This document shows positions 1,626 to 32,000 of a DNA stretch of 32,000 bases, piece after piece. The DNA is taken from NCBI GenBank assembly GCA_028700115.1, contig JAQVTI010000007.1, forward strand, positions 1-32,000. The letters are read 5' to 3'. Source of the stretch: Candidatus Iainarchaeum sp. Lineage in GTDB: Archaea > Iainarchaeota > Iainarchaeia > Iainarchaeales > CSSED10-239. The first letter of the stretch is position 1. Every line of letters starts with the position of its first letter. The translations under genes and the position numbers were made by a program. The notes below the pieces were generated by a model that had not been told where the DNA came from, made no database searches, and was given only the letters and a program-made list of their open reading frames with translations.

Positions 1626-2096
1626 ATGAAAGAAACAATAATTGGGATTATTAAAAATGTACAAGCAAAAGGAAAAAATACTTTTATTAAAAAAAATTGT
1701 GATTTATATTTTACAAATAAGAGAATTATTTGTATTATTTTAAGTGAATCTAATTTTATAAGTGGTATGACTGGGGGACTAATTGCAGGAGTTTCAGGAA
1801 TTATTGCACTTTCTCAAATAACAGATTATACAGCAAAAGATAAAAGATCTAAAAATAAAGAAAAAGAATTAGATTTTATAATTTATTCTAATCCAAATAG
1901 TTTTGAAATTAAAAATAATGATATAATTATAGAAAAATCAAAACTAGAAACAAGATTTATAAAAACTTTTAGAATATTTGCTCAATTAATAATAAAAACC
2001 AAATCTAAAAAATATTTTTTTGATATCCCTTATCAATATAGATATATTGCAAAAATAATTATATCAAAATATAACAATAAATTAAAAATAAATTAA
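1626..2096 (+). CDS. hypothetical protein
   Basis: ORF track 1617..2096. The track start is TTG; the first ATG is at 1626. One central hydrophobic, Gly-rich segment (GMTGGLIAGVSGIIAL). No family recognised. Confidence 0.4.
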   Translation: MKETIIGIIKNVQAKGKNTFIKKNCDLYFTNKRIICIILSESNFISGMTGGLIAGVSGIIALSQITDYTAKDKRSKNKEKELDFIIYSNPNSFEIKNNDIIIEKSKLETRFIKTFRIFAQLIIKTKSKKYFFDIPYQYRYIAKIIISKYNNKLKIN

Positions 2097-2668
2097 ATTA
2101 TTAATTCATATTCTGGAAGTAAATTATAATCTATTTCTATATGTTTTAAATCTGATCCTTTTATTCTAGATAAATCAGAATTATAAGATTTATCAATATA
2201 TTCTAAAAATAATTTATTCCCTTCAAAATAAACAGAATATATTTTTTTAACATTTTTATCTTTAAGAAATTTATTAAATTTAATAATTTTTATTTTAGAA
2301 ATAGGTTTAAAACCTAAAGATTGTGCAAAATTAGGATGTTTTATAAAAATCCAAGAACTAATTTTTATTTTAGGAATTTTTTCTTTTTTTGCATATTTTT
2401 TAATTAATTCAATATTATATATTAATTTACGAAGAGATGGATCTAAATTTATTGACATCCCTTTAATTCTTTCAAAATCTTCTATTCTGATATGATCTTT
2501 AAATTTTAAAATTTTTAATTTATAATTTCTTGTTTTAATTTTTTGATTATTTTCAAATTTACCAATAATTGGATGTTTCTTTAAAATATTATAATTTATA
2601 TTACTTTTTATATCTGAAAATGTTTCTTTAATAATTTTAGTTACTATTGAATTTTTTGTTATAACCAT
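2093..2668 (-). CDS. hypothetical protein
   Basis: 191-aa ORF with an ATG start. No motif recognised. Confidence 0.5.
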   Translation of the reverse strand: MVITKNSIVTKIIKETFSDIKSNINYNILKKHPIIGKFENNQKIKTRNYKLKILKFKDHIRIEDFERIKGMSINLDPSLRKLIYNIELIKKYAKKEKIPKIKISSWIFIKHPNFAQSLGFKPISKIKIIKFNKFLKDKNVKKIYSVYFEGNKLFLEYIDKSYNSDLSRIKGSDLKHIEIDYNLLPEYELII

Positions 2669-2693
2669 ACAATATCATTATTTATAAATTATA

Positions 2694-3194
2694 TTAATTT
2701 AATAAAAATACTAAAAAATTTAAAATCATTGCAAAAAAAATCCATAAAACATAAGGTAATAATAATCTAGAAGCAGTTCTATTTATATAACTAAATTTAT
2801 TAATTGTTAAAATTATAAAAACTTCTAAAATAACAATTTCAATTAATGATATAAACAAAAAATTAAATTCAAAAAATAAAATAACCCATAAAAAATTTAA
2901 AATTAATTGTATTATAAAAAAATTTATTGCAGATTTTCTTAAATCTATAAAAGATTTATTTTTATTATATGTTTTTAAAATAATATAAAATGAAATAATC
3001 ATTAAAATAAATAAAATATTCCAAACTATTGGAAAAATAAAACTAGGAGGTACTAAAAAAGGTAAATTTATTGTTTGATACCAAGTTGGTATATTTCTAG
3101 TTGTAAAAATACTTCCAATTATTGCAGTTATAAAAATAAATATTACTGAAATTATAAATGCAGTTAATTTATTTAATTTTTTATATATAAACAT
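2694..3194 (-). CDS. tspO: TspO/MBR (tryptophan-rich sensory protein) family membrane protein
   Basis: About 5 TM segments. N-terminal pattern 'PTWYQTINLPFLVPPSFIFPIVWNILF' matches the TspO signature W-Y-x-x-L-x-x-P-x-x-x-PP-x-x-x-F-x-x-VW-x-x-L. Confidence 0.65.
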   Translation of the reverse strand: MFIYKKLNKLTAFIISVIFIFITAIIGSIFTTRNIPTWYQTINLPFLVPPSFIFPIVWNILFILMIISFYIILKTYNKNKSFIDLRKSAINFFIIQLILNFLWVILFFEFNFLFISLIEIVILEVFIILTINKFSYINRTASRLLLPYVLWIFFAMILNFLVFLLN

Positions 3195-5786: not shown

Positions 5787-6485
5787 TCAAAAAGAAATAC
5801 ATTTATTAAAAATAATAATTGTTCCAGAAATTAAAAAATATATAAAATACATAATAAAAATTTTAGAAACAATTTCAGATATAAAAATATTCCCAAAAAT
5901 AGTAAATAACCCTAAAATTATAAAATATATAAATAAAATTAAAAATATATAACCTATAAAAAAAGAAAAATAAACTAAAAAAATTCTAGAAAATATTAAT
6001 TTAAAAGTTTTTTTAAAATCAAAAATTATTTCAATTTTTTCTTTAGATACATAATTACTTAAATTAATTATTTTTATAAATTCTAAAACAATTACAAAAA
6101 ATATAAAAATTAATCCAAATATTCCAGAAATAGTTAAATTAAATAAATTTAATGAAGAAAAATTAAACATATTTGATACTATCAAAGAAGGAGAAAATCC
6201 TATCAATATTAAAATTGACTGAAATATAAAAAATATAAAATTACAAACTATAAATATAAATGAATATTTTAATAAATTAATAGAAAATAAATTTTTAAAA
6301 CTTAATTTATTCTTAATATTTAAAGAAATTACAAAATATGATATAAATATTGTTAAAAAAAAGGATATTACAAAAAAAGTACTATTAATTAAAGATAAAA
6401 TACCAAAAATCAAAATCAATAAAAAAAATTTATAATTTACAAACGGCTTTCTAAAAACATCTACAAAATTAAAATTATTATTCAT
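5787..6485 (-). CDS. hypothetical polytopic membrane protein
   Basis: 232-aa ORF made almost entirely of hydrophobic Phe/Ile/Leu-rich segments (about 6 TM). Confidence 0.55.
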   Translation of the reverse strand: MNNNFNFVDVFRKPFVNYKFFLLILIFGILSLINSTFFVISFFLTIFISYFVISLNIKNKLSFKNLFSINLLKYSFIFIVCNFIFFIFQSILILIGFSPSLIVSNMFNFSSLNLFNLTISGIFGLIFIFFVIVLEFIKIINLSNYVSKEKIEIIFDFKKTFKLIFSRIFLVYFSFFIGYIFLILFIYFIILGLFTIFGNIFISEIVSKIFIMYFIYFLISGTIIIFNKCISF

Positions 6486-6560
6486 TTATTAAACACCTAA
6501 TTAATATACTATATATAATCCTTTTATAAATAAATTTATTTTAAAAAAAATAAAAATTAA

Positions 6561-7547
6561 TTATAATCTTCTAGTATTTTTAAGAGAATTAACTTTAATA
6601 AATTTATCCTTATTTTTTAAGATTTTATTTCTTCCAAAAAGATTTTTAGTTTTTTCTCTATTTTTTAAAAGATAATTCAATTCAACAAAAACACCACCTT
6701 GTTTGGAAATTACAGATGTTTGTCTTTCAAGATACATACTAAATTTTCCTTTTTCTTTAGGTTTAAAATATATTGAAAAATTAATAGATGGATTACTTTT
6801 TTTAGTTTTAGGATTAATTAATCTTCCACCTTCTAAAGTTGAATTAAATATATATTCTCCTTTTTTACTTAAATCTGCAGTTCCATAAAAACCTATAAAT
6901 TTTGTAGAAATATTTTTATTTTCAAAAACTCTAATTCCTGCAGAATATTTATTTTTATTAAATTTTATTTCTGAAATACCATTATATGATTTAATTATAC
7001 CATTTTCTAAATAAATACTTCCACCAATTCCTATATTTTCTTTTTTATTTCTTAAAGCAAGTGAAATTTCTGATTTTTCTAAAATATTAATATCCTTTAA
7101 TTTAAAATTATTTAAATTTTTATCAAAACCAACATTTAAAGATATAGGAAGTTTAAAAATTTCTGAAAATTTTAAAACAGTATGTATTTGAGAATAAAAT
7201 TTATCCGGAACAAGTTTTCCATTGATAAACATATTATTTTTTCCAACTTCTAAAGCAAAATTATATTTTAGATTATTTTTATCTTTACCAAATCTATATT
7301 CTAAACTTTGTGTTAATGTTTTTTTTTCTAATTCCCCAGGATCTAAATAAAATGTTCTTGATGAAAATAAATTTCCTTGTTCGTATATTATTGGATTAAA
7401 TTCTAAAGTTTTAATACTTGAAATTTGTTGAGCTGAAACTTTTTGTGAACCAATAAATACAGATGTACTTAATAATAATGTTTTTAAAATTTGTTTAGGA
7501 TTTTTTAAATAAGATATAATAAATTGTTTTGTGTTTTTGAATTTCAT
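6561..7547 (-). CDS. hypothetical secreted beta-strand-rich protein
   Basis: N-terminal signal-like segment LLLSTSVFIGSQKVSAQQ. The rest has short alternating hydrophobic/polar stretches (YNFALEVG, YSAGIRVF, FIGFYGTADL, FSMYLERQ, VFVELNYL). Confidence 0.55.
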   Translation of the reverse strand: MKFKNTKQFIISYLKNPKQILKTLLLSTSVFIGSQKVSAQQISSIKTLEFNPIIYEQGNLFSSRTFYLDPGELEKKTLTQSLEYRFGKDKNNLKYNFALEVGKNNMFINGKLVPDKFYSQIHTVLKFSEIFKLPISLNVGFDKNLNNFKLKDINILEKSEISLALRNKKENIGIGGSIYLENGIIKSYNGISEIKFNKNKYSAGIRVFENKNISTKFIGFYGTADLSKKGEYIFNSTLEGGRLINPKTKKSNPSINFSIYFKPKEKGKFSMYLERQTSVISKQGGVFVELNYLLKNREKTKNLFGRNKILKNKDKFIKVNSLKNTRRL

Positions 7548-7641
7548 AAAAATCGTGTTATAATCTTTTTTTAATATATAAAATAATTATAAATCTTATA
7601 AATAATATTATAAAATATAAATAAAATAATAAAATTTAAAG

Positions 7642-7714
7642 TGGACTCTACGAGATTTGAACTCGCGGCCTCGTCCTTGCAAGGGACGCGCTCTACCAAC
7701 TGAGCTAAGAGCCC
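7642..7714 (-). tRNA. tRNA-Ala(UGC)
   Basis: Reverse complement GGGCTCTTAGCTCAGTTGGTAGAGCGCGTCCCTTGCAAGGACGAGGCCGCGAGTTCAAATCTCGTAGAGTCCA. Anticodon loop CTTGCAA. G3-U70 pair present in the acceptor GGGCTCT/AGAGTCC. Confidence 0.9.
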
Positions 7715-7876
7715 TTTTATTAAAATATTATATAAGAAAACACTTATAAATATATTTTTTTAAAATAAACATAAATAAATTGAAGAAAAATAGAGAGAAT
7801 GTGGAGATTAGAAGTATTTGCTTAAAAAACTCTAATTTGAAAATTTCGAAAAAATAACTAAATAAAATAGTTATAT

Positions 7877-9371
7877 AGGAGGTGATCCGTCCGCAGGTTC
7901 CCCTACGGACACCTTGTTACAACTTAGTCTACCTCACGAAATATAGAATAACTTTAACCTTTAGTAGCTTAAAGTTCATCTACACTTCATTCAGTTGGCT
8001 TGATGGGCGGTGTGTGCAAGGCGCAGGGACATATTCACCGCGCGATAGTGACACGCGATTACTGGGGATTCCAGTTTCATGAGGGTGAGTTGCAACCCTC
8101 AATCCAGACTTGGATCAAGTTTTTGAGATTACCACCCCCTTTCGGGTTAGAGACTCTTTGTCTTGACCATTGTATGCCGCGTGTTGCCCAGAACGTTTGC
8201 ACTATACTGACCTACCTTCGCCCATTCCTTCCTCACTGTTACCAGTGCAGTCTTGTTAGAGTGCTCTTTTTTGTAAACAAAAAAGATAGCAACTAACAAT
8301 ATGGGTCTCGCCCGTTACCTGAGTTAACAGGAAGCTTCACAGTACGAGCTGACGATGGCCATACAGTAGCTCTCAGCGCATCAGGTAAGACCTTTAGCCT
8401 GACCGTCATCTTGCTGTCAGCCCTGGTAAAATATCTGGCGTTTCATCCAATTAAACCGCAGCATCCACCCCTTGTAGTGCACCCCCGCCAATTCCATTAA
8501 GTTTCAGTCTTGCGACCATACTTCCCAGGCGGCGGATTTAATGGTTTCCCTTCGGCCCTGAGTAAACTCGTAGTTTACCCAACACCTAATCCGCATCGTT
8601 TACGGCTGGGACTAACCGGGTATCTAATCCGGGTTGCGCCCCCAGCTTTCGTGTCTCACTGTCAGATCCGTTCTCGTTAAGCGCCTTCGCCACAGGTAGT
8701 CTTTCTAGTATCTTAAGATTCTACTCCTACTCTAGAAATACTCTTAACGTCTCCCGGTCTCTAGTCATGCCAGTATCTCTTGCAATTCAACAAGTTAAGC
8801 TTGCTGCTTTCACAAAAGACTTAACAAACCAGCTACACACGCTTTAAGCCAAATAATGCTGGATACCACTTGGGGATTACGTATTACCGCGGCGGCTGGC
8901 ACGCATATTGCCCTCCCCTTATTCGCATAGTTATTCACACTATACAAAAGCTTGCAAAGCAAGCACTTGGAATCTCTTTATCACGGTTTCCCGCATTGTA
9001 AAAGTTTCGTAACTGCTGCACCCCGTAGGGCTAGGGACATTATCTCAGTTCCCTTCTCCGGGCTCCCTCTCTCAAGGCCCGTACAGATCTCAGGCTTGGT
9101 AGGCAATTACCCTACCAACTACCTAATCTGACGCAGTCCCATCCTTTCGCGACTTACCAGCATGAAGGTAAGACTTTTTAAAAAACAATCATTCCAGATT
9201 TGTTTTTCTATAGAGCATTATCCTCAGTTTCCCAAGTTTTACTCTTCAAAAGGGTAGGTTGACCACGCGTTACTGAGCCGTTCGCCAAAACTTCTCATAG
9301 CTGAAGTTTTTAGACTTGCATGTCTTAGTCAGATTCCAATAGCAGTATCCACCAGCAGGATCAGCTGGAAT
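7877..9371 (-). rRNA. rrs: 16S (SSU) ribosomal RNA, archaeal type, 1495 nt
   Basis: 5' end ATTCCAGCTGATCCTGCTGGTGGA (reverse complement at 9371). 3' end ...GTAACAAGGTGTCCGTAGGGGAACCTGCGGACGGATCACCTCCT (ends at 7877). Conserved blocks GTGCCAGCCGCCGCGGTAATAC and TTGCACACACCGCCCGTCA are present in reverse complement. Confidence 0.95.
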
Positions 9372-10542: not shown

Positions 10543-10695
10543 ATGGATAATGCAGCAAAAGAAAGAAGATTAAAAAATATATGGGTATGTATGGCTTGTA
10601 ATAACACTATGAGATCTTCAAAAAAACCAGAAGCATGTAAAAAATGTGGTTCTACAAGAATAAGAGCTAAAAAGAAAGGAAAGAATGTTAAATAA
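10543..10695 (+). CDS. rpl40e: ribosomal protein L40e (50 aa, C4 zinc ribbon)
   Basis: Not in the ORF track. AGGTGG Shine-Dalgarno at 10531-10536. Translation MDNAAKERRLKNIWVCMACNNTMRSSKKPEACKKCGSTRIRAKKKGKNVK, with the pattern C-x-x-C...C-x-x-C-G...R-x-K typical of L40e. Confidence 0.7.
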   Translation: MDNAAKERRLKNIWVCMACNNTMRSSKKPEACKKCGSTRIRAKKKGKNVK

Positions 10696-14166: not shown

Positions 14167-15732
14167 TTATAACCATCCAAAAAGCATTAAAAGACCTAAT
14201 AATAATATAATTGCACCTGCAACTAAATGGAAATATCTTATATTCTTTTGTTTCCATTCTCCAATATCTTGAATCTTACTTATCCCAAAATAAACTATTA
14301 AAGTTATAATAATCATTGGAATAATAAATATAAGATTATATAATAATAACAAAGGAATAGACTTTAAAATATCAATTAAAGCAAGAGAATTAGTTGCAAC
14401 AACATAAGGTCCAATTGTACAAGGTAAAAGAAAAACAGTAACAAAAAGACCTACTACAAAAGCACCAATCGGAGAAGTTGCTTTTTTAATTAATTTTTGT
14501 ACTTTTGGTCTTAACCCCATAGGCATTTCAGTACCTATAGTCCCAGGTTTATAATTAAAGAAGTCTTTAATTTGTAAAACTCCTAAAATAATTGCAATAA
14601 TTGCAAAAACTTTATATGCAATAATAGATGTTGCACCAGAAAATGATTTAAATAAAGAAATAAAAATTAAGCCATATAAAAAATACATAATAAATATAGA
14701 TAAAGTAAATAAAAGACCTGATTTTAAAATTTTATTTTTATTATTAGAACTATAAGTTGTAATAGTTAATAAAAGCATTAATAAAACAGCAAAAGCACAA
14801 GGATTTACAGCATCTGTTAATGCAAGAGTAACAACTTTAAAAACACTTAATTTATCTTTATTTACTTTATTTGCTAAAATTGTAGAATTATCTAAAACTT
14901 CATTACATTCTTTTTCAACAACACTACATTCTCCATTAAAATAAAATTTATAACCATCAAATTCAACAGCTTGATCAAAAGATTGTATAGCTCCTGAAAG
15001 TGGGATATAATTTTCATTAATACTAATAAAATTAATATCTTTTAAAATTAAAGAAACATCTTCTAAAGATAATAAATTATGTAAAATATCATTAGAAATA
15101 ATAGAAGAACTTGAAACTTTTTCTAAAGCTCTATCTTTTTTCCAAACTACAAAATTACCTTTTAATTTATTTAAATTAATATCAGAAAAATAAGTTGAAC
15201 CATTTTCATAAACTGAAAAAGGTAAAGGGCATTTATTATCTGTAATAAAATTTAAATTATTATCTATAAAATTATCAATTATAGAAGTATAATAAAATAT
15301 ATTTTCTTTATTCAAAACTAAAAAAGGAATAGTTGTTCCAGAATCATATAAATCATCATAATCTAAAGCAAAAATAGTATTTTGTCTTTTTTGTTTAACT
15401 TCATATTCTATAATTACCAAATTAGGATTTTCTTTTAAGCCTTCTTTTAATAAAACAGGATCAATCTTTGCACAATGAGGGCAACCTATTCCTGTAATAT
15501 ATACCCCACAAACTTCTTTATTATAATTTATAGAATTATTTCCATTTAAATCAGAATTTTCTAAATTATTATTTAAAAAATCCATACTAAAAATATTATC
15601 TGAAGAATCAATTTCACAAAGATTTTCTCCAGTATTTATATCTAAACAATCATCAGCAAATATAAATGTAGAAAAAAACAAACTTAAAACAACTAATATA
15701 AACAAAAATAAAATACTTTTATAATTTTTCAT
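14167..15732 (-). CDS. fusion of an extracytoplasmic thioredoxin-like domain (CPHC) with a CcdA/DsbD-type thiol-disulfide transporter membrane domain
   Basis: Signal/anchor at the N-terminus. GIGCPHCAKIDP is a CxxC thioredoxin motif. The C-terminal 6-TM region has the two conserved Cys contexts TDAVNPCAFAV and LLPCTIGPY typical of CcdA/DsbD-beta. Confidence 0.75.
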   Translation of the reverse strand: MKNYKSILFLFILVVLSLFFSTFIFADDCLDINTGENLCEIDSSDNIFSMDFLNNNLENSDLNGNNSINYNKEVCGVYITGIGCPHCAKIDPVLLKEGLKENPNLVIIEYEVKQKRQNTIFALDYDDLYDSGTTIPFLVLNKENIFYYTSIIDNFIDNNLNFITDNKCPLPFSVYENGSTYFSDINLNKLKGNFVVWKKDRALEKVSSSSIISNDILHNLLSLEDVSLILKDINFISINENYIPLSGAIQSFDQAVEFDGYKFYFNGECSVVEKECNEVLDNSTILANKVNKDKLSVFKVVTLALTDAVNPCAFAVLLMLLLTITTYSSNNKNKILKSGLLFTLSIFIMYFLYGLIFISLFKSFSGATSIIAYKVFAIIAIILGVLQIKDFFNYKPGTIGTEMPMGLRPKVQKLIKKATSPIGAFVVGLFVTVFLLPCTIGPYVVATNSLALIDILKSIPLLLLYNLIFIIPMIIITLIVYFGISKIQDIGEWKQKNIRYFHLVAGAIILLLGLLMLFGWL

Positions 15733-16929: not shown

Positions 16930-17868
16930 TTATAACTTTAATTTATTAAAAAAATTAATAGATTGAGTTATATTTTCAGAAAAGGATTCATTAAAACCAG
17001 GATCTATTAAATAAATTTTTTTAGTATTAATATTTATTAATACATTTTTAGGTAAAATATCAAATATATAATTATTATAAAAAGAATCTTTATTTTTAAA
17101 ATATATATTTAAATTATATTTGACATTTTCAAAAATATTTTCTAAATCTTTTGAAATTTTATTAAATTCTGTTGAATTTATAATTTGTTTAGTTTTATTA
17201 TATTCACTTATATAAAAACTTTTTAAATTTTGTAAATTACTATAATCTAAACAAATAAAATTAATAGCTTTATTTTTAAAAATCTTAAAATAATTTGATG
17301 AAAAATATGCTAATTTTGGGGAAATAATATTTATTCCTTGACGTTCTAATAATTTTAATGCAACAAATTCTTCAAAACTTGGTAATTTATAATTATTTCC
17401 TTGTTTAATATAAAATTTATGTATTTTATTTAATTTATCTTTAATTATTAAAAAAAATGAATTCTTTGTATTTAATGAATCTTCTTTTAACTTATTTTTA
17501 TAAGACATATTATATTTTGAAATTAAATAATTCCCTTTTGGATCTTTTATTTTTTTTAAAGAAGGATCTTTAATTAATTTTAAAAAAGAAGAAATTATAC
17601 CTTTATTTTCTGAAAGTAATTTCTTAAAAGATAAATCATATGCTAATGCTTTTATTGCATGTCCTTTTGCATAATAATCTTTTTTAATTTTTTTTTCATA
17701 AATATAAGCATTATATTTTAAATTAAGATTATTAAATTCTTTTGAATAATATATTCTTTTTAAATCTAATTCATTAGGTAGATTAACAAAACTTATTAAT
17801 TTAGTATTTCTTTTTTTAATTGTTTCTTTAATAATTTTATTTTTTCTAAATAAATTCATTATAATCAT
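16930..17868 (-). CDS. uncharacterised protein, possible minimal protein-kinase-like fold (paralog B of a tandem pair)
   Basis: 312 aa. Kinase-fold call rests on weak motifs. KFYIKQ would be the beta3 Lys and SFEEF the alphaC Glu. NFICLDYSNL would be the hinge. FDILPKNVLININTKKIYLIDPGF would be a D-x-x-x-x-N catalytic-loop-like motif plus an xID- DFG-like motif. About 45 percent identical by eye to 17870..18787. The start is 1 nt after the stop of the upstream paralog. Confidence 0.6.
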   Translation of the reverse strand: MIIMNLFRKNKIIKETIKKRNTKLISFVNLPNELDLKRIYYSKEFNNLNLKYNAYIYEKKIKKDYYAKGHAIKALAYDLSFKKLLSENKGIISSFLKLIKDPSLKKIKDPKGNYLISKYNMSYKNKLKEDSLNTKNSFFLIIKDKLNKIHKFYIKQGNNYKLPSFEEFVALKLLERQGINIISPKLAYFSSNYFKIFKNKAINFICLDYSNLQNLKSFYISEYNKTKQIINSTEFNKISKDLENIFENVKYNLNIYFKNKDSFYNNYIFDILPKNVLININTKKIYLIDPGFNESFSENITQSINFFNKLKL

Positions 17869-17869
17869 T

Positions 17870-18787
17870 TTATAATTCTAATTTTTTAAAAAAATTAATT
17901 GCATTAATTGGATTAATTTGTAAATTTGACGAAAGTACAGGATCAATTAAATATATTTTTTTTGTATATATATTAATTAACGTATTTTTTGGATGAATAT
18001 CTTTAATATATGATTTTGATTTTTCATCAATTTTACTATTTTCAACCATTTTTGAAATTTTAAAAATATTATTTACTATATTATTATATTCTTTAAAAGA
18101 CAATATATTTTTATTAGTATTATATTTACTATTAAAAAAACTATTTAAACTATGTAAATTTGTATAATCCAAACAAATAAAATTTTTATAATCTCCATGA
18201 TTCATAATACCAGAAACATTTCTAGAAAAATATGCTAATTTTGGAGATATAATATCAAATCCAATAGATTCTAAAAATTTTAAACATATAAATTCTTCAA
18301 AACTTGGGGGGGATGTATCAAATCTTGCTTGTTTAATATAAAATTTATTAATTTTATTAGATTTATCTTTAATTAAAAGAAAATAAGAACATCCTGTATT
18401 TAATGAGTTTTCTGATTTAAATTTATCAATAGATTTTAATGATTTTGAAATTAAATAATTACCTTTTGGATCTTTTATTTTTTTTAAAGAAGGATCTTTA
18501 ATTAATTTTAAAAAAGAAGAAATTATACCTTTATTTTCTGAAAGCAATTTTTTAAAAGATAAATCATATGCTAAAGATTTTGTTCTAAATTGTCTAAAAT
18601 TAAAAGGGTATGCAGTTTTAGAATATTCTTTTTTAAAAGTATTATAATTTATTTTAAAATCTTTAAATTCTTTAAAAAAATTAACTTCAAAAATTCTTCT
18701 TAAAGGCATATCTTTATAAATTTTATAAGATAATAAATCTCTTTTTTTATTTATTAATTTTTTACCTATAGGACTATTAATTGGCAT
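17870..18787 (-). CDS. uncharacterised protein, possible minimal protein-kinase-like fold (paralog A of a tandem pair)
   Basis: 305 aa. Motifs KFYIKQ, SFEEF, NFICLDYTNL and KDIHPKNTLINIYTKKIYLIDP. Shares an identical 44-aa block LAYDLSFKKLLSENKGIISSFLKLIKDPSLKKIKDPKGNYLISK with paralog B. Confidence 0.6.
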   Translation of the reverse strand: MPINSPIGKKLINKKRDLLSYKIYKDMPLRRIFEVNFFKEFKDFKINYNTFKKEYSKTAYPFNFRQFRTKSLAYDLSFKKLLSENKGIISSFLKLIKDPSLKKIKDPKGNYLISKSLKSIDKFKSENSLNTGCSYFLLIKDKSNKINKFYIKQARFDTSPPSFEEFICLKFLESIGFDIISPKLAYFSRNVSGIMNHGDYKNFICLDYTNLHSLNSFFNSKYNTNKNILSFKEYNNIVNNIFKISKMVENSKIDEKSKSYIKDIHPKNTLINIYTKKIYLIDPVLSSNLQINPINAINFFKKLEL

Positions 18788-18925
18788 AAATAAATTTACA
18801 TAAGAATGTTTTTAAAATAATTTATTATTTTATATATTAATATAATAATCATAATTTATTTAATTAAATTATATTTATTATTTATTTTTAAAAATAAATT
18901 TTAATTTTATTAAAAAAATAAATTT

Positions 18926-19972
18926 TTAGTCAACAAATATTATTTCAGGTTTTTCTAAATCAAATAAATCTGTTGAATAAATATAAGCTCCTGCATTTAT
19001 AAAAAAAATTTTATCCCCAATCTTTGGTAAATTGCCTTCCTTAAAATAAACTCTATATCTAAAAATATCCTCAGAAGCAGGAGTTAATCCTTTTATAACA
19101 TAAGATTTACCTTTTTCTTCTAAATCTTCATTTTCTACTAATAATTTAATATTTGTTACAATTGTATCCATTGAACAATTATATACAGATGCATCTATAA
19201 ATAAATTATTTGAAACTATATTTTTTATAGTTGCAATTAGTTTACCACAAGGAGCAGCAATAGCTCTTCCAGGCTCAATAATTAATTTAATATTTAAATT
19301 ATTAAAATATGTTTTAATATCAATAATTTTTTTATAAATAGATTCAATTGCAGAAGGTGAAATGTTTTTATAATCAACAGGAATTCCTCCTCCAATATCT
19401 AAATAACTAATAGCTTCTAATGTTTCTGGCAGAAGAGAATCTGTTATTTCTCTAATTATTGACCATTCAGATAAATTTTGTGTTTTTCTATGAAAATGAA
19501 CTCCAAGAGAAGATATATTTAAATTATTTTTAAGTTTAAAAATATATTCATTAATCTCAGTTGAAAAAAATCCATAAACAAAATACCTACCTGTTGAGAC
19601 AGTGTATTCTTTAAGTCTCATTCTTAAAAATAAATTCACTTTTTTATTATTTTTTTTAATATATTCTAAAAAAAAATCTAAATCTTTTGAATTATCAATT
19701 ATAAAATTTATAATACCTTTTTTAAAAATTAAATTTAATTCTTCATAATCAGGACAATGAAGCATAAAATAAATTTTTAGATTATTTTTTATATATTTAA
19801 ATTCATTAACATGATGTATTAAAAATCTAGAAGAAGTATTTTCTTCTAAAATATTTGTAATATATGGATTAGACTTTACACTATATGAAACAATATCTGT
19901 AATCTTTTCTAAATTTTTATAAGATTCTAAAACTTTTTCTTTTGAAATTTCAAATCTTGCTTTTGAAAACAT
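18926..19972 (-). CDS. PLP-dependent decarboxylase of the Orn/DAP/Arg decarboxylase family (alanine-racemase fold); probable arginine or ornithine decarboxylase
   Basis: Contains YSVKSNP (PLP-Lys context), GVHFHRKT, LDIGGGIPV and EPGRAIAAPCG, the family's conserved blocks. At 348 aa it is short for the family. Substrate cannot be read from the sequence. Confidence 0.75.
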   Translation of the reverse strand: MFSKARFEISKEKVLESYKNLEKITDIVSYSVKSNPYITNILEENTSSRFLIHHVNEFKYIKNNLKIYFMLHCPDYEELNLIFKKGIINFIIDNSKDLDFFLEYIKKNNKKVNLFLRMRLKEYTVSTGRYFVYGFFSTEINEYIFKLKNNLNISSLGVHFHRKTQNLSEWSIIREITDSLLPETLEAISYLDIGGGIPVDYKNISPSAIESIYKKIIDIKTYFNNLNIKLIIEPGRAIAAPCGKLIATIKNIVSNNLFIDASVYNCSMDTIVTNIKLLVENEDLEEKGKSYVIKGLTPASEDIFRYRVYFKEGNLPKIGDKIFFINAGAYIYSTDLFDLEKPEIIFVD

Positions 19973-27564: not shown

Positions 27565-27646
27565 TGCAGGGCACAGGATTCGAACCTATGAAGCACTAAG
27601 CAATGGATTTTGAGTCCATCCCCTTTGACCACTCGGGAAGCCCTGC
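27565..27646 (-). tRNA. tRNA-Leu(CAA), class II (long variable region)
   Basis: Reverse complement GCAGGGCTTCCCGAGTGGTCAAAGGGGATGGACTCAAAATCCATTGCTTAGTGCTTCATAGGTTCGAATCCTGTGCCCTGCA. Anticodon stem ATGGA/TCCAT, loop CTCAAAA. The 13-nt variable region pairs only weakly. Confidence 0.8.
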
Positions 27647-28463: not shown

Positions 28464-28880
28464 TTAACAAGAACCCTCTTTTAAAATAGGAATTTCTCCT
28501 GCAAGACAAGTATTTGAATAAGTTACACCATTAACAGCACAAACAGGTACATATTCCAGAGTACAAAATCTATTTGGATCTAAATTATTTAAATTAATAA
28601 ATTCTCCTTTTTGACATTCATTATTAAATAATTTCCATTCCTCACATTCAGAACCATCTTCAAAAACACAAACTCCATAAGTTCCATTTTCAAAAGTTCT
28701 AAAATCTAAAGTTCCACCTAAATTATCACAATTTACAGAAGCAGGATTTGCAATTTGAACATTATCATTTCCTTCTCCTTGAGGAACATACATTCTAGTT
28801 TTAAAAAATATAATATAAACTAAAAATAAAACTAAAATAATACCTATTGCAATTAATGCAATTTTTAAACTCTTATTCAT
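28464..28880 (-). CDS. membrane-anchored secreted protein: DUF333-like Cys-rich domain followed by a Kazal-type inhibitor-like domain
   Basis: N-terminal TM anchor. ANPASVNCDNLGGT...GVCVFEDGSECEEWKLFNNEC matches the DUF333 pattern NPAS-x-x-C...GG...G-x-C-x-F-x-DGS-x-C-x-EW. CTLEYVPVCAVNGVTYSNTCLA matches the Kazal core C-x-x-x-Y-x-PVC-x-x-x-G-x-TY-x-N-x-C. Confidence 0.6.
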   Translation of the reverse strand: MNKSLKIALIAIGIILVLFLVYIIFFKTRMYVPQGEGNDNVQIANPASVNCDNLGGTLDFRTFENGTYGVCVFEDGSECEEWKLFNNECQKGEFINLNNLDPNRFCTLEYVPVCAVNGVTYSNTCLAGEIPILKEGSC

Positions 28881-28969: not shown

Positions 28970-29212
28970 TTAAAAATTAGAATAAAAAGCGCAGAGGACG
29001 GGATTCGAACCCGCGTAGTCGTAAGACTCTAGCTTAGCAGGCTTGAAGAATTGTGTGCTGTTTGTGACGTTAGTGTCGTTTGTAGATGCACTAAACAAAG
29101 CAACTCTCAGCAATTGCCTTATCAACTTAGATGCATTAATTTTTTTCTTTTTAATAAAATCATACGTATGTTTATCAAGATTAATTTCAATTCTTTTCTT
29201 TTTTTCTTTCAT
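28970..29212 (-). CDS. ribbon-helix-helix (CopG/Arc-like) protein whose reading frame runs on across the tRNA-fragment junction
   Basis: Residues 1-40 MKEKKKRIEINLDKHTYDFIKKKKINASKLIRQLLRVALF fit a beta-strand / helix / helix RHH pattern. From about residue 56 onward (KPAKLESYDYAGSNPVLCAFYSNF) the frame is encoded by the tRNA-like fragment and its flank. Confidence 0.5.
   Translation of the reverse strand: MKEKKKRIEINLDKHTYDFIKKKKINASKLIRQLLRVALFSASTNDTNVTNSTQFFKPAKLESYDYAGSNPVLCAFYSNF
28990..29045 (-). other. 3' portion only of a class II tRNA-Ser(GCU)-like gene (anticodon arm, variable arm, T arm, 3' acceptor strand): att-like remnant
   Basis: Reverse complement CAAGC-CTGCTAA-GCTAG (one A-A mismatch in the stem), variable hairpin AGTC-TTAC-GACT, T arm GCGGG-TTCGAAT-CCCGT, acceptor 3' strand CCTCTGC plus G, then a T-run. 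The 26+ nt where the D arm and the 5' acceptor GCAGAGG should lie do not match. Confidence 0.7.
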
Positions 29213-30191
29213 TTAAATCACATATTTTATCCCAATCATTAATTAAATCATAACCTTGATTATAATATTCATAAAATATATTTACTATTTCCTCTCTAGG
29301 AACAGGCACAATATCAGATAATTGTGATCTTTTAATAATATCAGGAGATGGAATATTATAAATTATAATTTTTTTATTTTTATCTTCAGTAATAAAATAT
29401 CTATCGTGGATATCCTTTAGAGCATTATCATTTAAAATTTTGACATTAATATCTATATTTGTTAATTCTGATTTCAACTTTTTAAATAGTTTTCTGAAAT
29501 CTAAATTAATATGATTTGGGGAAGTAATAATTTTAATAGACAAGACTTTATCCTTTGTATATTTAAATAAATAATCAAGGCCACTAGTAGAAAAATATTT
29601 ATCAATCCAAAGTATTAAATTATTAGACCTTTCATGTATTAACTCTTCCATTGCTTTTTCATTTGAATATGGTTTATTTGGACTTATCGATATAGAAGTA
29701 ACTTCCTCGGATAACAAACCACTATCTTGATTAATAAAGTCTATACCTTCTGAAGTTATTGCTATGTGTCTACTACCTATATATTTTGCAAAACCATAAT
29801 ACTTTAAATAATCAAATACATAATAAAAATATAATTTATCTAAATTTAAATCATCAATAACTTGATTAAATAATACATAAGTAGAACTTTTAGATAATTG
29901 AAACAATTTATTTAAGATTTTAATTTCACATTCTTTCCTTCTTAAATAATCTGAATTATAATACTCTTTTTCAATCAAATTAGCACCATTTTGAGAAATT
30001 GAATAGCCACCTCCTAAAGCTCTTGATTTAATTAACCCTTTATCCGATAAATACTTTAATTCTAAATGATTGATATTTAAGTTATTTTCTGAAATTACAG
30101 TATCTATAAATATTATAGAATTAAATATATTTATTGATTTTTTCTTAGCACTATCGTAAAATAATTTTAAAAATTTCAAGTTATATTCCAT
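29187..30191 (-). CDS. hypothetical protein: two N-terminal winged-helix-like modules plus a C-terminal domain with an IHDRYFI motif (possible degenerate PLD-fold, MIT_C-like)
   Basis: LKYLSDKGLIKSRALGGGYSISQNGANLIE and FDYLKYYGFAKYIGSRHIAITSEGIDFI look like wHTH recognition helix plus wing. The C-terminal order LILWIDKYF / LSIKIITSP / INVKIL..IHDRYFITED..IIIYNIPSPD resembles the MITD1 C-terminal PLD-like domain as I remember it. That resemblance is weak. Confidence 0.55.
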   Translation of the reverse strand: MEYNLKFLKLFYDSAKKKSINIFNSIIFIDTVISENNLNINHLELKYLSDKGLIKSRALGGGYSISQNGANLIEKEYYNSDYLRRKECEIKILNKLFQLSKSSTYVLFNQVIDDLNLDKLYFYYVFDYLKYYGFAKYIGSRHIAITSEGIDFINQDSGLLSEEVTSISISPNKPYSNEKAMEELIHERSNNLILWIDKYFSTSGLDYLFKYTKDKVLSIKIITSPNHINLDFRKLFKKLKSELTNIDINVKILNDNALKDIHDRYFITEDKNKKIIIYNIPSPDIIKRSQLSDIVPVPREEIVNIFYEYYNQGYDLINDWDKICDLNERKKEKN

Positions 30192-30197
30192 ATTAAA

Positions 30198-31115
30198 TCA
30201 TATCTTTATTTTTTCATAAACTTTATATGGCCAATTTTGTTCTTCAGAAATACAAGATGAAAAAGCACTTACAAAGAATAAATTTTCAGTAAATTTAGTC
30301 ACATCATAATTACAATCTTTAATATTAAATACAGCTAAAATTAATCTGTTGAAATGAACAATATCTTCATTTGAGATACCTGAGAAATAAATTGAATTAA
30401 TTATTAAATTTATATTATAAGTATTAACCCTATTTTCAAGATTATATTTTTTAAGAGTTTTTTTTAAAGCTAAACTAGAGGTATTATTATTTTCATCAGC
30501 TATAGAATCATAACCTTTTGTTTTTTTATTTAATTTAATTTCTTTATTATAATTTAGTATATATTCTTCTTTAATTTGATTAAATTTGTCTCCAAATATC
30601 CAATACCCTAAATGATAATTTAGATAATTAGATTTTAATCCCTCTTTTATAATTTCTAATATATTAGTAAAATTATGATAAGGAAATAAAGGCCTATTTT
30701 TAATAGGTATAAAGTCCACAGATTGTAAGAAACTAAATAATATATCTATTTGTTTTTTATTTAGTTTAATATCAAATAAAATTTCAAACCATTTAAAAGA
30801 AGGAATCAATGGATTACCTTTATTTGTTGTTTTCGAAGTCCATTTTATTTCTATAGAACCATCTTTTTTTTCATCAACTCTATCAAATTGATGAAAATCA
30901 TTTTTATCTGGAATAGTTTCTAAGAAAAATGGCTTTATTTTTTTAATTTTATTTCTGATAGTATTATTACCTGTTACATCAGGATAAAATATTTCTTCTA
31001 AATTTTTCTGAGTAAAATAATAATTTTCTCTAGAACCAAAAACAAATATACTAAATAAAACTTGTGAAGTTAATTTTTCATCTAATAAGTCCAATATTAT
31101 ATTTTTATAGGGCAT
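30198..31115 (-). CDS. hypothetical protein (no recognisable domain)
   Basis: 305-aa ORF with an ATG start. It stops 6 nt before the start of the next gene on the same strand. Confidence 0.55.
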   Translation of the reverse strand: MPYKNIILDLLDEKLTSQVLFSIFVFGSRENYYFTQKNLEEIFYPDVTGNNTIRNKIKKIKPFFLETIPDKNDFHQFDRVDEKKDGSIEIKWTSKTTNKGNPLIPSFKWFEILFDIKLNKKQIDILFSFLQSVDFIPIKNRPLFPYHNFTNILEIIKEGLKSNYLNYHLGYWIFGDKFNQIKEEYILNYNKEIKLNKKTKGYDSIADENNNTSSLALKKTLKKYNLENRVNTYNINLIINSIYFSGISNEDIVHFNRLILAVFNIKDCNYDVTKFTENLFFVSAFSSCISEEQNWPYKVYEKIKI

Positions 31116-31287
31116 AATTTATCTTTCATTCTTGCTTACTAATTTAAAGTAAATTTAGTAATTATAACATTACTAATCCTATAAAAAAAATAGGACCTCA
31201 TAAACATCATAAGATATATATGATTACTAAAAAAAACTTTATTAGATAACTAATATAGTAATCAAAAAATATATAAAGAGGTGTATT

Positions 31288-31569
31288 ATGAAAAAATATG
31301 AAAGCGGACAGGTAAGTAAAGTACATACAGGTCCAAGATACAATTTGGTAGAATTAAAAACCCCTACTGAAACACTTCAGATTTCTGATTGGAATAAATT
31401 TCCTATAAAAGAAAATGAAGAATATACTTTAGAACTTCAAGAAAATGGTGAATTTCTAAACCTTATTTCTATAGAAGACGCTAAAGGTAATAAATTAGAA
31501 ATGAATAAAAAAGATAAAATAATTAAATTAGCTAATAAAATAATATCTGAAGCTAAGGAGGTGATCTAA
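31288..31569 (+). CDS. hypothetical small protein
   Basis: 93 aa. GAGGTG Shine-Dalgarno 7 nt upstream of the ATG. Confidence 0.55.
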   Translation: MKKYESGQVSKVHTGPRYNLVELKTPTETLQISDWNKFPIKENEEYTLELQENGEFLNLISIEDAKGNKLEMNKKDKIIKLANKIISEAKEVI

Positions 31570-31850
31570 TGCCTCTTTCTTATTATAATACAAAAGATAC
31601 TGTGCCTTTATCAAAATTAAAAGAAAGGTACATTACAACCTTTGTTGATAATCTTAAAGACTTTGAAGAAGAAATCATTCAAAATTATAATAACTCAAAT
31701 ACAAAGTTATTCATAGAAAATGACAAAGCTTTTCTAATTATCAATGAATTTTGTTTTATAATTATATATTATACTAAAAAAATAAAAGAAAAAATAGTAC
31801 AATGTGTGAATGGATGTGGTATAGATGCAAGAAAACATATTTCAAAGTGA
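31569..31850 (+). CDS. hypothetical small protein
   Basis: 93 aa. TAATG stop/start overlap with the preceding gene. AAGGAGGTGATC (31555-31566) is a perfect complement of the 16S 3' end found in this window. Confidence 0.55.
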   Translation: MPLSYYNTKDTVPLSKLKERYITTFVDNLKDFEEEIIQNYNNSNTKLFIENDKAFLIINEFCFIIIYYTKKIKEKIVQCVNGCGIDARKHISK

Positions 31851-32000
31851 AGATCCTATTTTTTACAATCTTAATCAAGGAGAGTTTAAAGATAACTTTT
31901 ATTTTGGAAAAGTTATATCTGTTAAAAGTCAGCAAACCAATTGTGTAATATTATCTGATAGAAACTTCTTTGTAGATTATGAATCAGTAAAAGTAAAAGA
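31826..32000 (+). CDS. hypothetical protein, 5' part only (runs off the window)
   Basis: ATG at 31826. The open frame MQENIFQSEDPIFYNLNQGEFKDNFYFGKVISVKSQQTNCVILSDRNFFVDYESVKVK continues to the window end. It overlaps the previous gene by 25 nt. Confidence 0.4.

Follow-up and report, generated by a model that had tools for sequence, protein, structure and literature searches.

A tRNA-Ser fragment overlapped by half an integrase gene very likely marks the left end of an integrative element in an AT-rich DPANN archaeon

Results

The tRNA-Ser fragment

The right end of a 32,000-nucleotide stretch of Candidatus Iainarchaeum sp. (contig JAQVTI010000007.1, positions 1 to 32,000; hereafter the window) carries the 3′ part of a tRNA-Ser gene and, overlapping it, the N-terminal half of an integrase gene. 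Here we describe this locus and the integrative element of which it very likely forms the left end.

The tRNA fragment was read directly from the minus strand at 28990..29043 and comprises tRNA positions 29-73 of a tRNA-Ser(GCU); we designate it attL, the left attachment (att) site. From 29043 to 28990 its sequence is AGCCTGCTAAGCTAGAGTCTTACGACTAC-GCGGGTTCGAATCCCGT-CCTCTGC-G or, split by arms, AGC-CTGCTAA-GCTAG-AGTCTTACGACTAC-GCGGG-TTCGAAT-CCCGT-CCTCTGC-G, then C and T5. Of the 5′ strand of the anticodon stem, the fragment thus retains the final 3 nt. The loop CUGCUAA (anticodon GCU) and the 3′ strand of that stem come next, then a class II variable arm of 14 nt and the T arm, and finally the 3′ strand of the acceptor stem and the discriminator base, G73. 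The C and the run of five T residues (28984..28989, minus strand) are the host tRNA trailer with its natural terminator, where the host flank starts. Within the fragment, the T arm, acceptor strand and G73 at 28990-29014 (minus strand) are the 3′ part that the host gene had originally, and 29015..29043 (minus strand), spanning the anticodon stem/loop and variable arm, is the att core, which in a sibling contig forms an exact 29-bp repeat at both ends of the element. The window's core differs from the sibling copy at one base of the variable loop (T for C).

An initial annotation of the window had described here a minus-strand class II tRNA with anticodon GCU, extending from the anticodon arm to the discriminator base and followed by a T-run, with the D arm and 5′ acceptor strand missing. 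Our reading at 28990-29043 agrees on all these points: the 5′ third of the gene is absent, and no such sequence occurs in the window, where the one match to the 5′ acceptor/D-arm sequence, with 2 mismatches, at 15480, compares with 0.39 expected by chance. The window also holds no second copy of the fragment. The likeness of the fragment to tRNA-Ser(GCU) is not a chance one, because it matches the intact tRNA-Ser(GCU) of Iainarchaeota metagenome-assembled genomes (MAGs; loci L010 and L011) with 96% identity over 54-58 nt (E values of 3e-18 to 2e-20). Neither ARAGORN nor the Rfam tRNA model called the fragment as a tRNA, as expected for a gene that lacks its 5′ third.

Both ends of the element in a sibling contig

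Exact-protein look-ups with the open reading frames (ORFs) of the window located sibling contigs, all of 15.4 kb or less, and the window's terminal 3 kb is 99.7-100% identical in six other contigs. The longest sibling, ENA contig k141_460659 (15,389 bp), whose sequence was rebuilt from two overlapping parts, is 99.7% identical to window positions 28986-32000 in the same orientation. At 87-155 it holds the same integrase-proximal sequence and tRNA fragment as the window. It also has an intact tRNA-Ser(GCU), at 15214-15298, which is encoded on the minus strand when the contig is read in the same orientation as the window. The two ends share an exact 29-bp direct repeat, AGCCTGCTAAGCTAGAGTCTCACGACTAC (tRNA sense), the copies of which lie 15,127 bp apart. 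The prediction that an att site is duplicated here and that an intact tRNA-Ser lies at higher coordinates was therefore borne out in the sibling, 15.1 kb to the right.

Past the repeat, the two tRNA copies in k141_460659 differ from each other at 5 of 25 positions of the T arm and acceptor strand, including compensatory changes in the T stem (CTGGG/CCCAG in the fragment vs ACGGG/CCCGT in the intact gene). Such differences are expected if the host supplied one version of this segment and the element the other.

A split SSV-type integrase gene

When the left arm, core and right arm of k141_460659 were joined in a simulated excision, they gave one uninterrupted ORF of 355 aa. The reconstituted protein (Int) matches the Pfam family PF16795, Phage_integr_3 ('Archaeal phage integrase'), with an E value of 4e-27 (95.5 bits, against a cutoff of 27), the PHROGs integrase family phrog_5127 (7e-34), and the catalytic-domain structures of the SSV1 integrase, 3UXU, 3VCF and 4DKS (1.7e-9 to 6.6e-9). 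Its motifs SGVR, KYCRKW, QGR and NHY align with SGVR, KYFRKF, QGR and QHY of SSV1, and R219, R296, R319, H328 and Y329 are invariant in 7 members of the family; as judged from these alignments, the motif residues, including the C-terminal tyrosine, are the predicted conserved catalytic residues.

A tblastn search with the reconstituted Int showed that window positions 29212..28988 encode its residues 1-75 with 96% identity. Residues 1-57 are element-specific and residues 58-75 are encoded by the tRNA fragment, after which the frame enters host DNA and stops. Because the arms rejoin into one integrase ORF, the 80-aa ORF at 28970..29212 (minus strand) is therefore int(N), the N-terminal half of a split SSV-type integrase gene. 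In k141_460659, int(N) and int(C) lie at opposite ends of the element, beside the tRNA fragment and the intact tRNA, respectively; the window shows the int(N)/attL end. By sequence, then, attP lies inside the Int reading frame, so that integration split the int gene. The initial annotation had expected an integrase next to the intact tRNA; an integrase does exist, not as a whole gene but split, of the SSV type, and with its int(N) in the window. It had also found none of the genes to the right of the fragment recognisable, which does not hold for the ORF over the fragment, int(N), or for the ORF at the window edge, which encodes a helicase. A ribbon-helix-helix fold for int(N) was considered and was not established, as the searches gave sub-threshold CcdA matches alone (E values of 0.08 and 0.025) and no PDB sequence match. 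As a weaker possibility, int(N), the N-terminus of which is conserved, may act as a DNA-binding regulator in the integrated state.

The int(C) arm at L018 177-200 opens with a hairpin, AACCGGTTTTGCTCGGTT, directly past the tRNA 3′ end. The natural tRNA-Ser trailer at L014 ~2519-2545 (AGCTGATTTTGATCGGCT), as in other Iainarchaeota, resembles this hairpin, so the tRNA copy in attP may extend beyond the 3′ end of the gene. Hairpin-bearing, seemingly 'int(C)-like' trailers follow tRNA-Ser at L011/L036, L014/L034/L038 and L009/L040/L044, with no integrase beyond the tRNA, and were taken as host trailers.

A search of 5.8 billion proteins for homologues of Int returned 62 clusters, nearly all of them proteins of 200-290 aa that cover just the C-terminal 55-80% of the query. 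Several open with a translated tRNA T arm (such as MGSNPILCV and MRSRVRLSPEA), two C-terminal halves that we examined adjoin tRNA-Thr(GGU), and NCBI already labels some of the halves 'integrase'. One full-length relative, P0058 (337 aa), is encoded on the 7.6-kb contig L045, which has no tRNA gene, and its ORF embeds the 3′ half of a class I tRNA-like sequence; an attP within the ORF is thus a trait of the family, and unsplit genes exist. In other relatives the gene has been damaged: the int(C) at the occupied site L030 (447-1351) is broken into two frames at residue ~174, by a frameshift or an assembly error, which is consistent with pseudogene decay of a split integrase, and the int(C) of L039 (P0053) ends early, at residue ~206.

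At L032 (486-686 and 2420-2512), the int(N) of another element (48% identity) is fused to the same tRNA-Ser core, and the same strand carries, 1.7 kb away, a C-terminal integrase piece. The same tRNA-Ser target may serve a second type of element, possibly in tandem.

Occupied and empty sites in other genomes

We scanned GTDB representative genomes and JGI metagenome contigs for the 29-mer core and classified the resulting 25 loci by their flanks. In many of the genomes the tRNA-Ser is a plain one with a T-rich trailer after it. Three combinations of host tRNA 3′ variant and flank are found next to the int(N) arm (in the window, k141_460659 and L035). The intact tRNAs that precede the int(C) arm differ in what lies upstream, with one flank in k141_460659/L010, a second in L030 and a third in L043. 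Such near-identical copies in at least two other host backgrounds argue for recent movement.

The genome of L007 is syntenic with the window, with a threonyl-tRNA synthetase (ThrRS) gene (78% nucleotide identity), tRNA-Leu(CAA) and an intact tRNA-Ser, and carries no element; upstream of its tRNA-Ser lie unrelated host genes. In L007 and L039 a TM-wHTH gene (295/312 aa) is found upstream of tRNA-Ser. The comparison with an empty site that the initial annotation had proposed thus supports an insertion, in that the genes to the right of the fragment are absent from the syntenic site of this related genome. Two further pairs also point to empty sites: the occupied L030 matches the unoccupied L009 with 97% identity over 236 bp, and L043 and L040, from one sample, share 118 bp at 100% identity, made up of the tRNA and 33 bp of flank, and part precisely at the 3′ end of the tRNA. 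Together, the empty and occupied sites and the several host contexts lend indirect support to integration and excision by the predicted Int.

Some loci have a more complex structure. L039 2498-7024 (identical to L013; JGI Ga0265294_10000018, 172 kb) is a tandem array at the tRNA-Ser locus, made up of an intact tRNA with the shortened int(C) P0053, a second tRNA-Ser-like gene and then a third att fragment, with insertion sequence-like ORFs in between. The 5′ half of the second tRNA-Ser-like gene is unusual; from its 3′ part into the flank, this gene matches the left flank of k141_460659 with 100% identity. This array suggests repeated integration and decay. On L020 (1-7450; ENA k141_5183), a module of the element's genes for proteins of 334, 197 and 276 aa is 99.97% identical over 3,250 bp, and at the point corresponding to k141_460659 position 10670 the sequence switches to unrelated genes (an APH kinase and others) and tRNA-Leu(CAA). 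This contig is either a deletion derivative that has lost attL or an assembly chimera.

Other genes of the element

Next to int(N), the minus-strand gene at 29187..30191 encodes a 334-aa TrmB/TrmBL2-like protein with two winged-helix domains and a C-terminal phospholipase D (PLD)-fold domain, as seen in an AlphaFold2 (AF2) model (pLDDT 89.1) compared by Foldseek. This protein has no Pfam match; its C-terminal domain is common to 199 representatives, and H262 and R264 of the PLD-fold domain are invariant. The structural matches include TrmBL2 (5bpd, 1.7e-5), TrmB (3qph) and the PLD folds of FAM83, MITD1 and Zucchini; since their TM scores are just 0.2-0.3, we claim for this protein the architecture alone. 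From the model, a DNA-binding, regulatory role is predicted. The following gene (30198..31115, minus strand; 305 aa) is present in all sibling contigs, and its product has no match in Pfam, PHROGs, PADLOC or NCBIfam.

An AT-rich intergenic region (31116..31287), probably a promoter or control region, separates these genes from divergent genes on the plus strand. The first two of these, at 31288..31569 and 31569..31850, each encode a 93-aa protein with no matches in Pfam or PHROGs. The former has a strong Shine-Dalgarno (SD) site, GAGGTG, and the latter a perfect 10-nt one, GGAGGTGATC; the two sites lie at 31272-31287 and 31553-31568, respectively, whereas an SD site is missing from most host ORFs in the window. 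Translation in the element may be initiated in another way than that of most host genes. The initial annotation had pointed to both unusually strong SD sites and to the overlaps between genes, which we also find: the second 93-aa gene overlaps the preceding one in TAATG at 31569, the 531-aa ORF described next starts at 31825, before the preceding ORF ends at 31850, and int(N) and the 334-aa gene share 26 nt at 29187-29212.

The last gene, at 31825..32000 on the plus strand, runs off the window; what is seen are the first 58 codons of a 531-aa superfamily 3 (SF3) replicative helicase of the D5/NrS-1/DUF927 type. In the AF2 model (pLDDT 87.4) of the protein encoded by the full ORF, at L015 2923-4518, Foldseek matches in PDB are African swine fever virus PrimPol, PriRep1, NrS-1, monkeypox virus E5 and adeno-associated virus Rep40 (1e-6 to 3e-4), and primase-helicases in BFVD match at 6.5e-25 with a TMq of 0.55-0.63. 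An identical protein (cluster P0066) is found in NCBI on a 39.7-kb contig of a 'Peptostreptococcales bacterium' MAG, probably a mis-binned archaeal contig and possibly the one to which the window belongs.

Outside the window, the element carries a Type III restriction-modification system as cargo, encoded by adjacent genes at L015 8964-10505 (MTase_III, 1e-159) and 6699-8963 (REase_III, 6e-89) and identified with PADLOC, together with a winged helix-turn-helix protein and several membrane or secreted proteins. Further ORFs of the element encode proteins of 125, 197, 276 and 353 aa and a second one of 334 aa. At L015 5187-5540 a 117-aa four-helix-bundle protein of the 23S rRNA-IVP/bAvd family is encoded (Pfam PF05635, weak PF22296). 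No further recombinase was detected among the element's proteins, and no capsid, packaging or structural gene rose above noise in PHROGs or Pfam, sequence searches that easily miss capsid proteins when these are small and hydrophobic. IMG/VR, scanned with the attL junction sequence and the 531-aa protein, holds no relative. Of the folds that the initial annotation had suggested looking for, the structure searches yielded a replication fold, that of the SF3 helicase.

The host genome

The window is archaeal, with a 16S rRNA gene at 7877-9371 (minus strand), an archaeal signal recognition particle RNA and four tRNAs, and by tRNA-Ser sequence its closest public relatives are Iainarchaeota MAGs, including Ca. 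Forterrea multitransposorum. Its GC content is 22%, and that of the 16S rRNA gene 46.8%. The GC content of rRNA is linked to growth temperature, and the latter value suggests a mesophilic host. No compositional discontinuity separates the element from the host (22-24% vs 22% GC). To the left of attL, the host flank holds a DUF333/Kazal gene (28464-28880) and tRNA-Leu(CAA) (27565-27646), both syntenic with L007 and L039. The 16S gene is followed by tRNA-Ala (7641-9371 for the two), and no 23S or 5S rRNA gene lies within the 32-kb window, so that the rRNA genes appear unlinked. The segments 2001-3000, 6001-7000 and 17001-19000 have just 14-15% GC, against the 22% average.

Discussion

Taken together, these observations make it very likely that window positions 28990-32000 are the attL-side left end of a ~15.1 kb integrative element that was inserted into the tRNA-Ser(GCU) gene of an AT-rich, Iainarchaeota-like DPANN archaeon by an SSV-type tyrosine integrase. 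In the free circular element, codons ~58-84 of the 355-aa int gene would copy tRNA-Ser positions 29-73 plus a short trailer and so constitute attP. Int would recombine attP with the chromosomal tRNA gene inside the 29-bp identical core, which extends from the anticodon stem/loop to the variable arm. For the copy in the window, the crossover probably fell in the first 20 bp of the core, that is, in the anticodon stem and loop, given that its core has T where the element-derived copy of k141_460659 has C, and provided that its attP was the same. At attR, a working tRNA-Ser would then be composed of the host's 5′ part and a 3′ part supplied by the element, with a promoterless int(C) after it; at attL, the side seen in the window, int(N) runs on into the tRNA 3′ part that the host gene left behind, with its T-run. 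As the integrase gene is disrupted in this state, excision would need pre-made Int or Int supplied in trans. We infer a corresponding right junction in the window's own genome, and an active integrase.

Several points weigh against this interpretation. For the window's own copy we saw neither the right junction nor the intact tRNA-Ser; the right end is known from sibling contigs. The nearest empty site for the window's host lineage is just ~78% identical in ThrRS. A circular attP junction of this element, which the initial annotation had suggested looking for, was found neither among the 25 core-bearing loci of the GTDB representatives and JGI metagenome contigs nor in IMG/VR. Finally, decay is frequent in relatives, as in the shortened int(C) of L039 and the frameshifted one of L030, so that present-day mobility of the window's copy is not assured.

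An alternative, which we consider improbable, is that the element is of the same kind and the window's copy is a decayed or truncated fossil that can no longer be excised because loss or rearrangement has affected its right end, its int(C) or an intact attR. It would account for an attR not observed in the window's genome, and it has parallels in the early end of int(C) and the tandem att array of L039/L013, in the frameshift of L030 and in the joining of an element module to unrelated genes on L020; moreover, a split int gene cannot itself drive excision (PMC7253208). However, int(N) is intact in the window, the 3 kb seen there differ little or not at all from those of six other contigs, the element is complete between both att sites in k141_460659, and the near-identical copies in different hosts argue for recent movement.

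An isolated tRNA 3′ half in a DPANN genome also calls to mind a split tRNA gene of the Nanoarchaeum/Caldivirga type, in which a functional 3′ half is joined in trans to a separate 5′ half. Split tRNAs are known in DPANN, the fragment is well preserved and a T-run follows it; nevertheless, this explanation, which the initial annotation had named among those that would speak against an insertion, is exceedingly improbable here, as none of its features was found. Upstream of the fragment lies integrase coding sequence and not a GC-rich leader, and this sequence is constant while the tRNA part varies with the host; the window holds no 5′ half, an intact tRNA-Ser(GCU) lies at the element's far end in the sibling contig, and related genomes carry ordinary unsplit tRNA-Ser(GCU). 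That the integrase is instead of the lambda or pNOB8 type with a separate attP, the ORF over the fragment being a chance ORF, would be the commonest arrangement for tRNA-targeting elements and was the implicit model of the initial annotation, but there is hardly any likelihood of it when the arms, joined across att, restore a continuous 355-aa ORF for a PF16795 integrase, our searches of the element's proteins turned up no other recombinase, and the homologues are mostly C-terminal halves adjoining tRNAs.

Compared with known systems, the locus shares the isolated tRNA 3′ half in a DPANN genome with the split tRNAs of Nanoarchaeum equitans, but has neither leader nor 5′ half; an integrase ORF encloses its fragment, and the partner of the fragment is an intact tRNA on the far side of the insert. 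Elements with pNOB8-type (type II) or lambda-type integrases likewise insert into the 3′ part of a tRNA gene, duplicate att and restore the tRNA, but their attP lies outside int and the gene survives, whereas here int is split.

In its mechanism the element resembles SSV1, which integrates into tRNA-Arg, whereas the target here is a class II tRNA-Ser. The two share the PF16795 catalytic domain, with direct sequence matches to SSV1 Int, as well as an attP in the int ORF, a tRNA 3′-part target and int(N) and int(C) flanking the element (PMC7253208). PF16795 integrases constitute the type I, SSV-type or 'suicidal' class, in which attP lies in the int gene and integration yields int(N) and int(C) (PMC7253208, PMC8371274). 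The alignment with SSV1 Int, however, covers just residues ~184-350, the catalytic domain, and a comparison with PHROGs detected no structural genes of fuselloviruses in the element. The hosts differ as well: that of SSV1 belongs to the thermoacidophilic Sulfolobales, and that of the present element is an AT-rich archaeon of the DPANN whose 16S GC content (46.8%) is mesophile-like.

The pT26-2 and pTN3 elements of Thermococcales and Archaeoglobales, which also encode 'suicidal' integrases, resemble the element in that the integrase splits itself and the elements are plasmid-like or integrated with variable cargo (PMC7253208, PMC8371274); in both cases, int(C) and int(N) pseudogene remnants are frequent, and the tRNA gene that serves as target varies between members of the family. 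The genes for replication and the cargo of the present element appear to differ from those of pT26-2. The pT26-2 and pTN3 families are prevalent in hyperthermophiles, with 5 exceptions in Methanosarcinales (Badel et al. 2020, PMC7253208).

The mechanism is thus textbook for SSV-type integrases, and what appears to be new is the host lineage and the setting. The terms 'DPANN' and 'Nanoarchae...' are absent from PMC7253208 and PMC8371274, and our literature search found no SSV-type integrase in DPANN or Iainarchaeota, where an earlier description may nonetheless exist. A large provirus survey recorded few or none in several DPANN phyla (PMC13573593). DPANN mobile elements being little recorded, the element described here is a concrete and testable one, with both junctions defined, an integrase that can be reconstituted and a set of attP, attB and Int ready for biochemistry. 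The ~60 protein clusters of its integrase family, mostly halves beside tRNA genes, are of a kind that standard annotation would miss or mislabel.

We put forward only tentatively, as a possibility short of an even chance, that the element stands for a family, not described before, of integrative elements which replicate themselves in Iainarchaeota (DPANN), extending SSV-type self-splitting integrases to AT-rich, apparently mesophilic, ultra-small archaea. If this is true, the proposed link of 'suicidal' integrases with hyperthermophily would be weakened, and SSV-type self-splitting integrases, which have been discussed mainly for hyperthermophiles (PMC7253208), would also operate in a host of mesophile-like rRNA composition.

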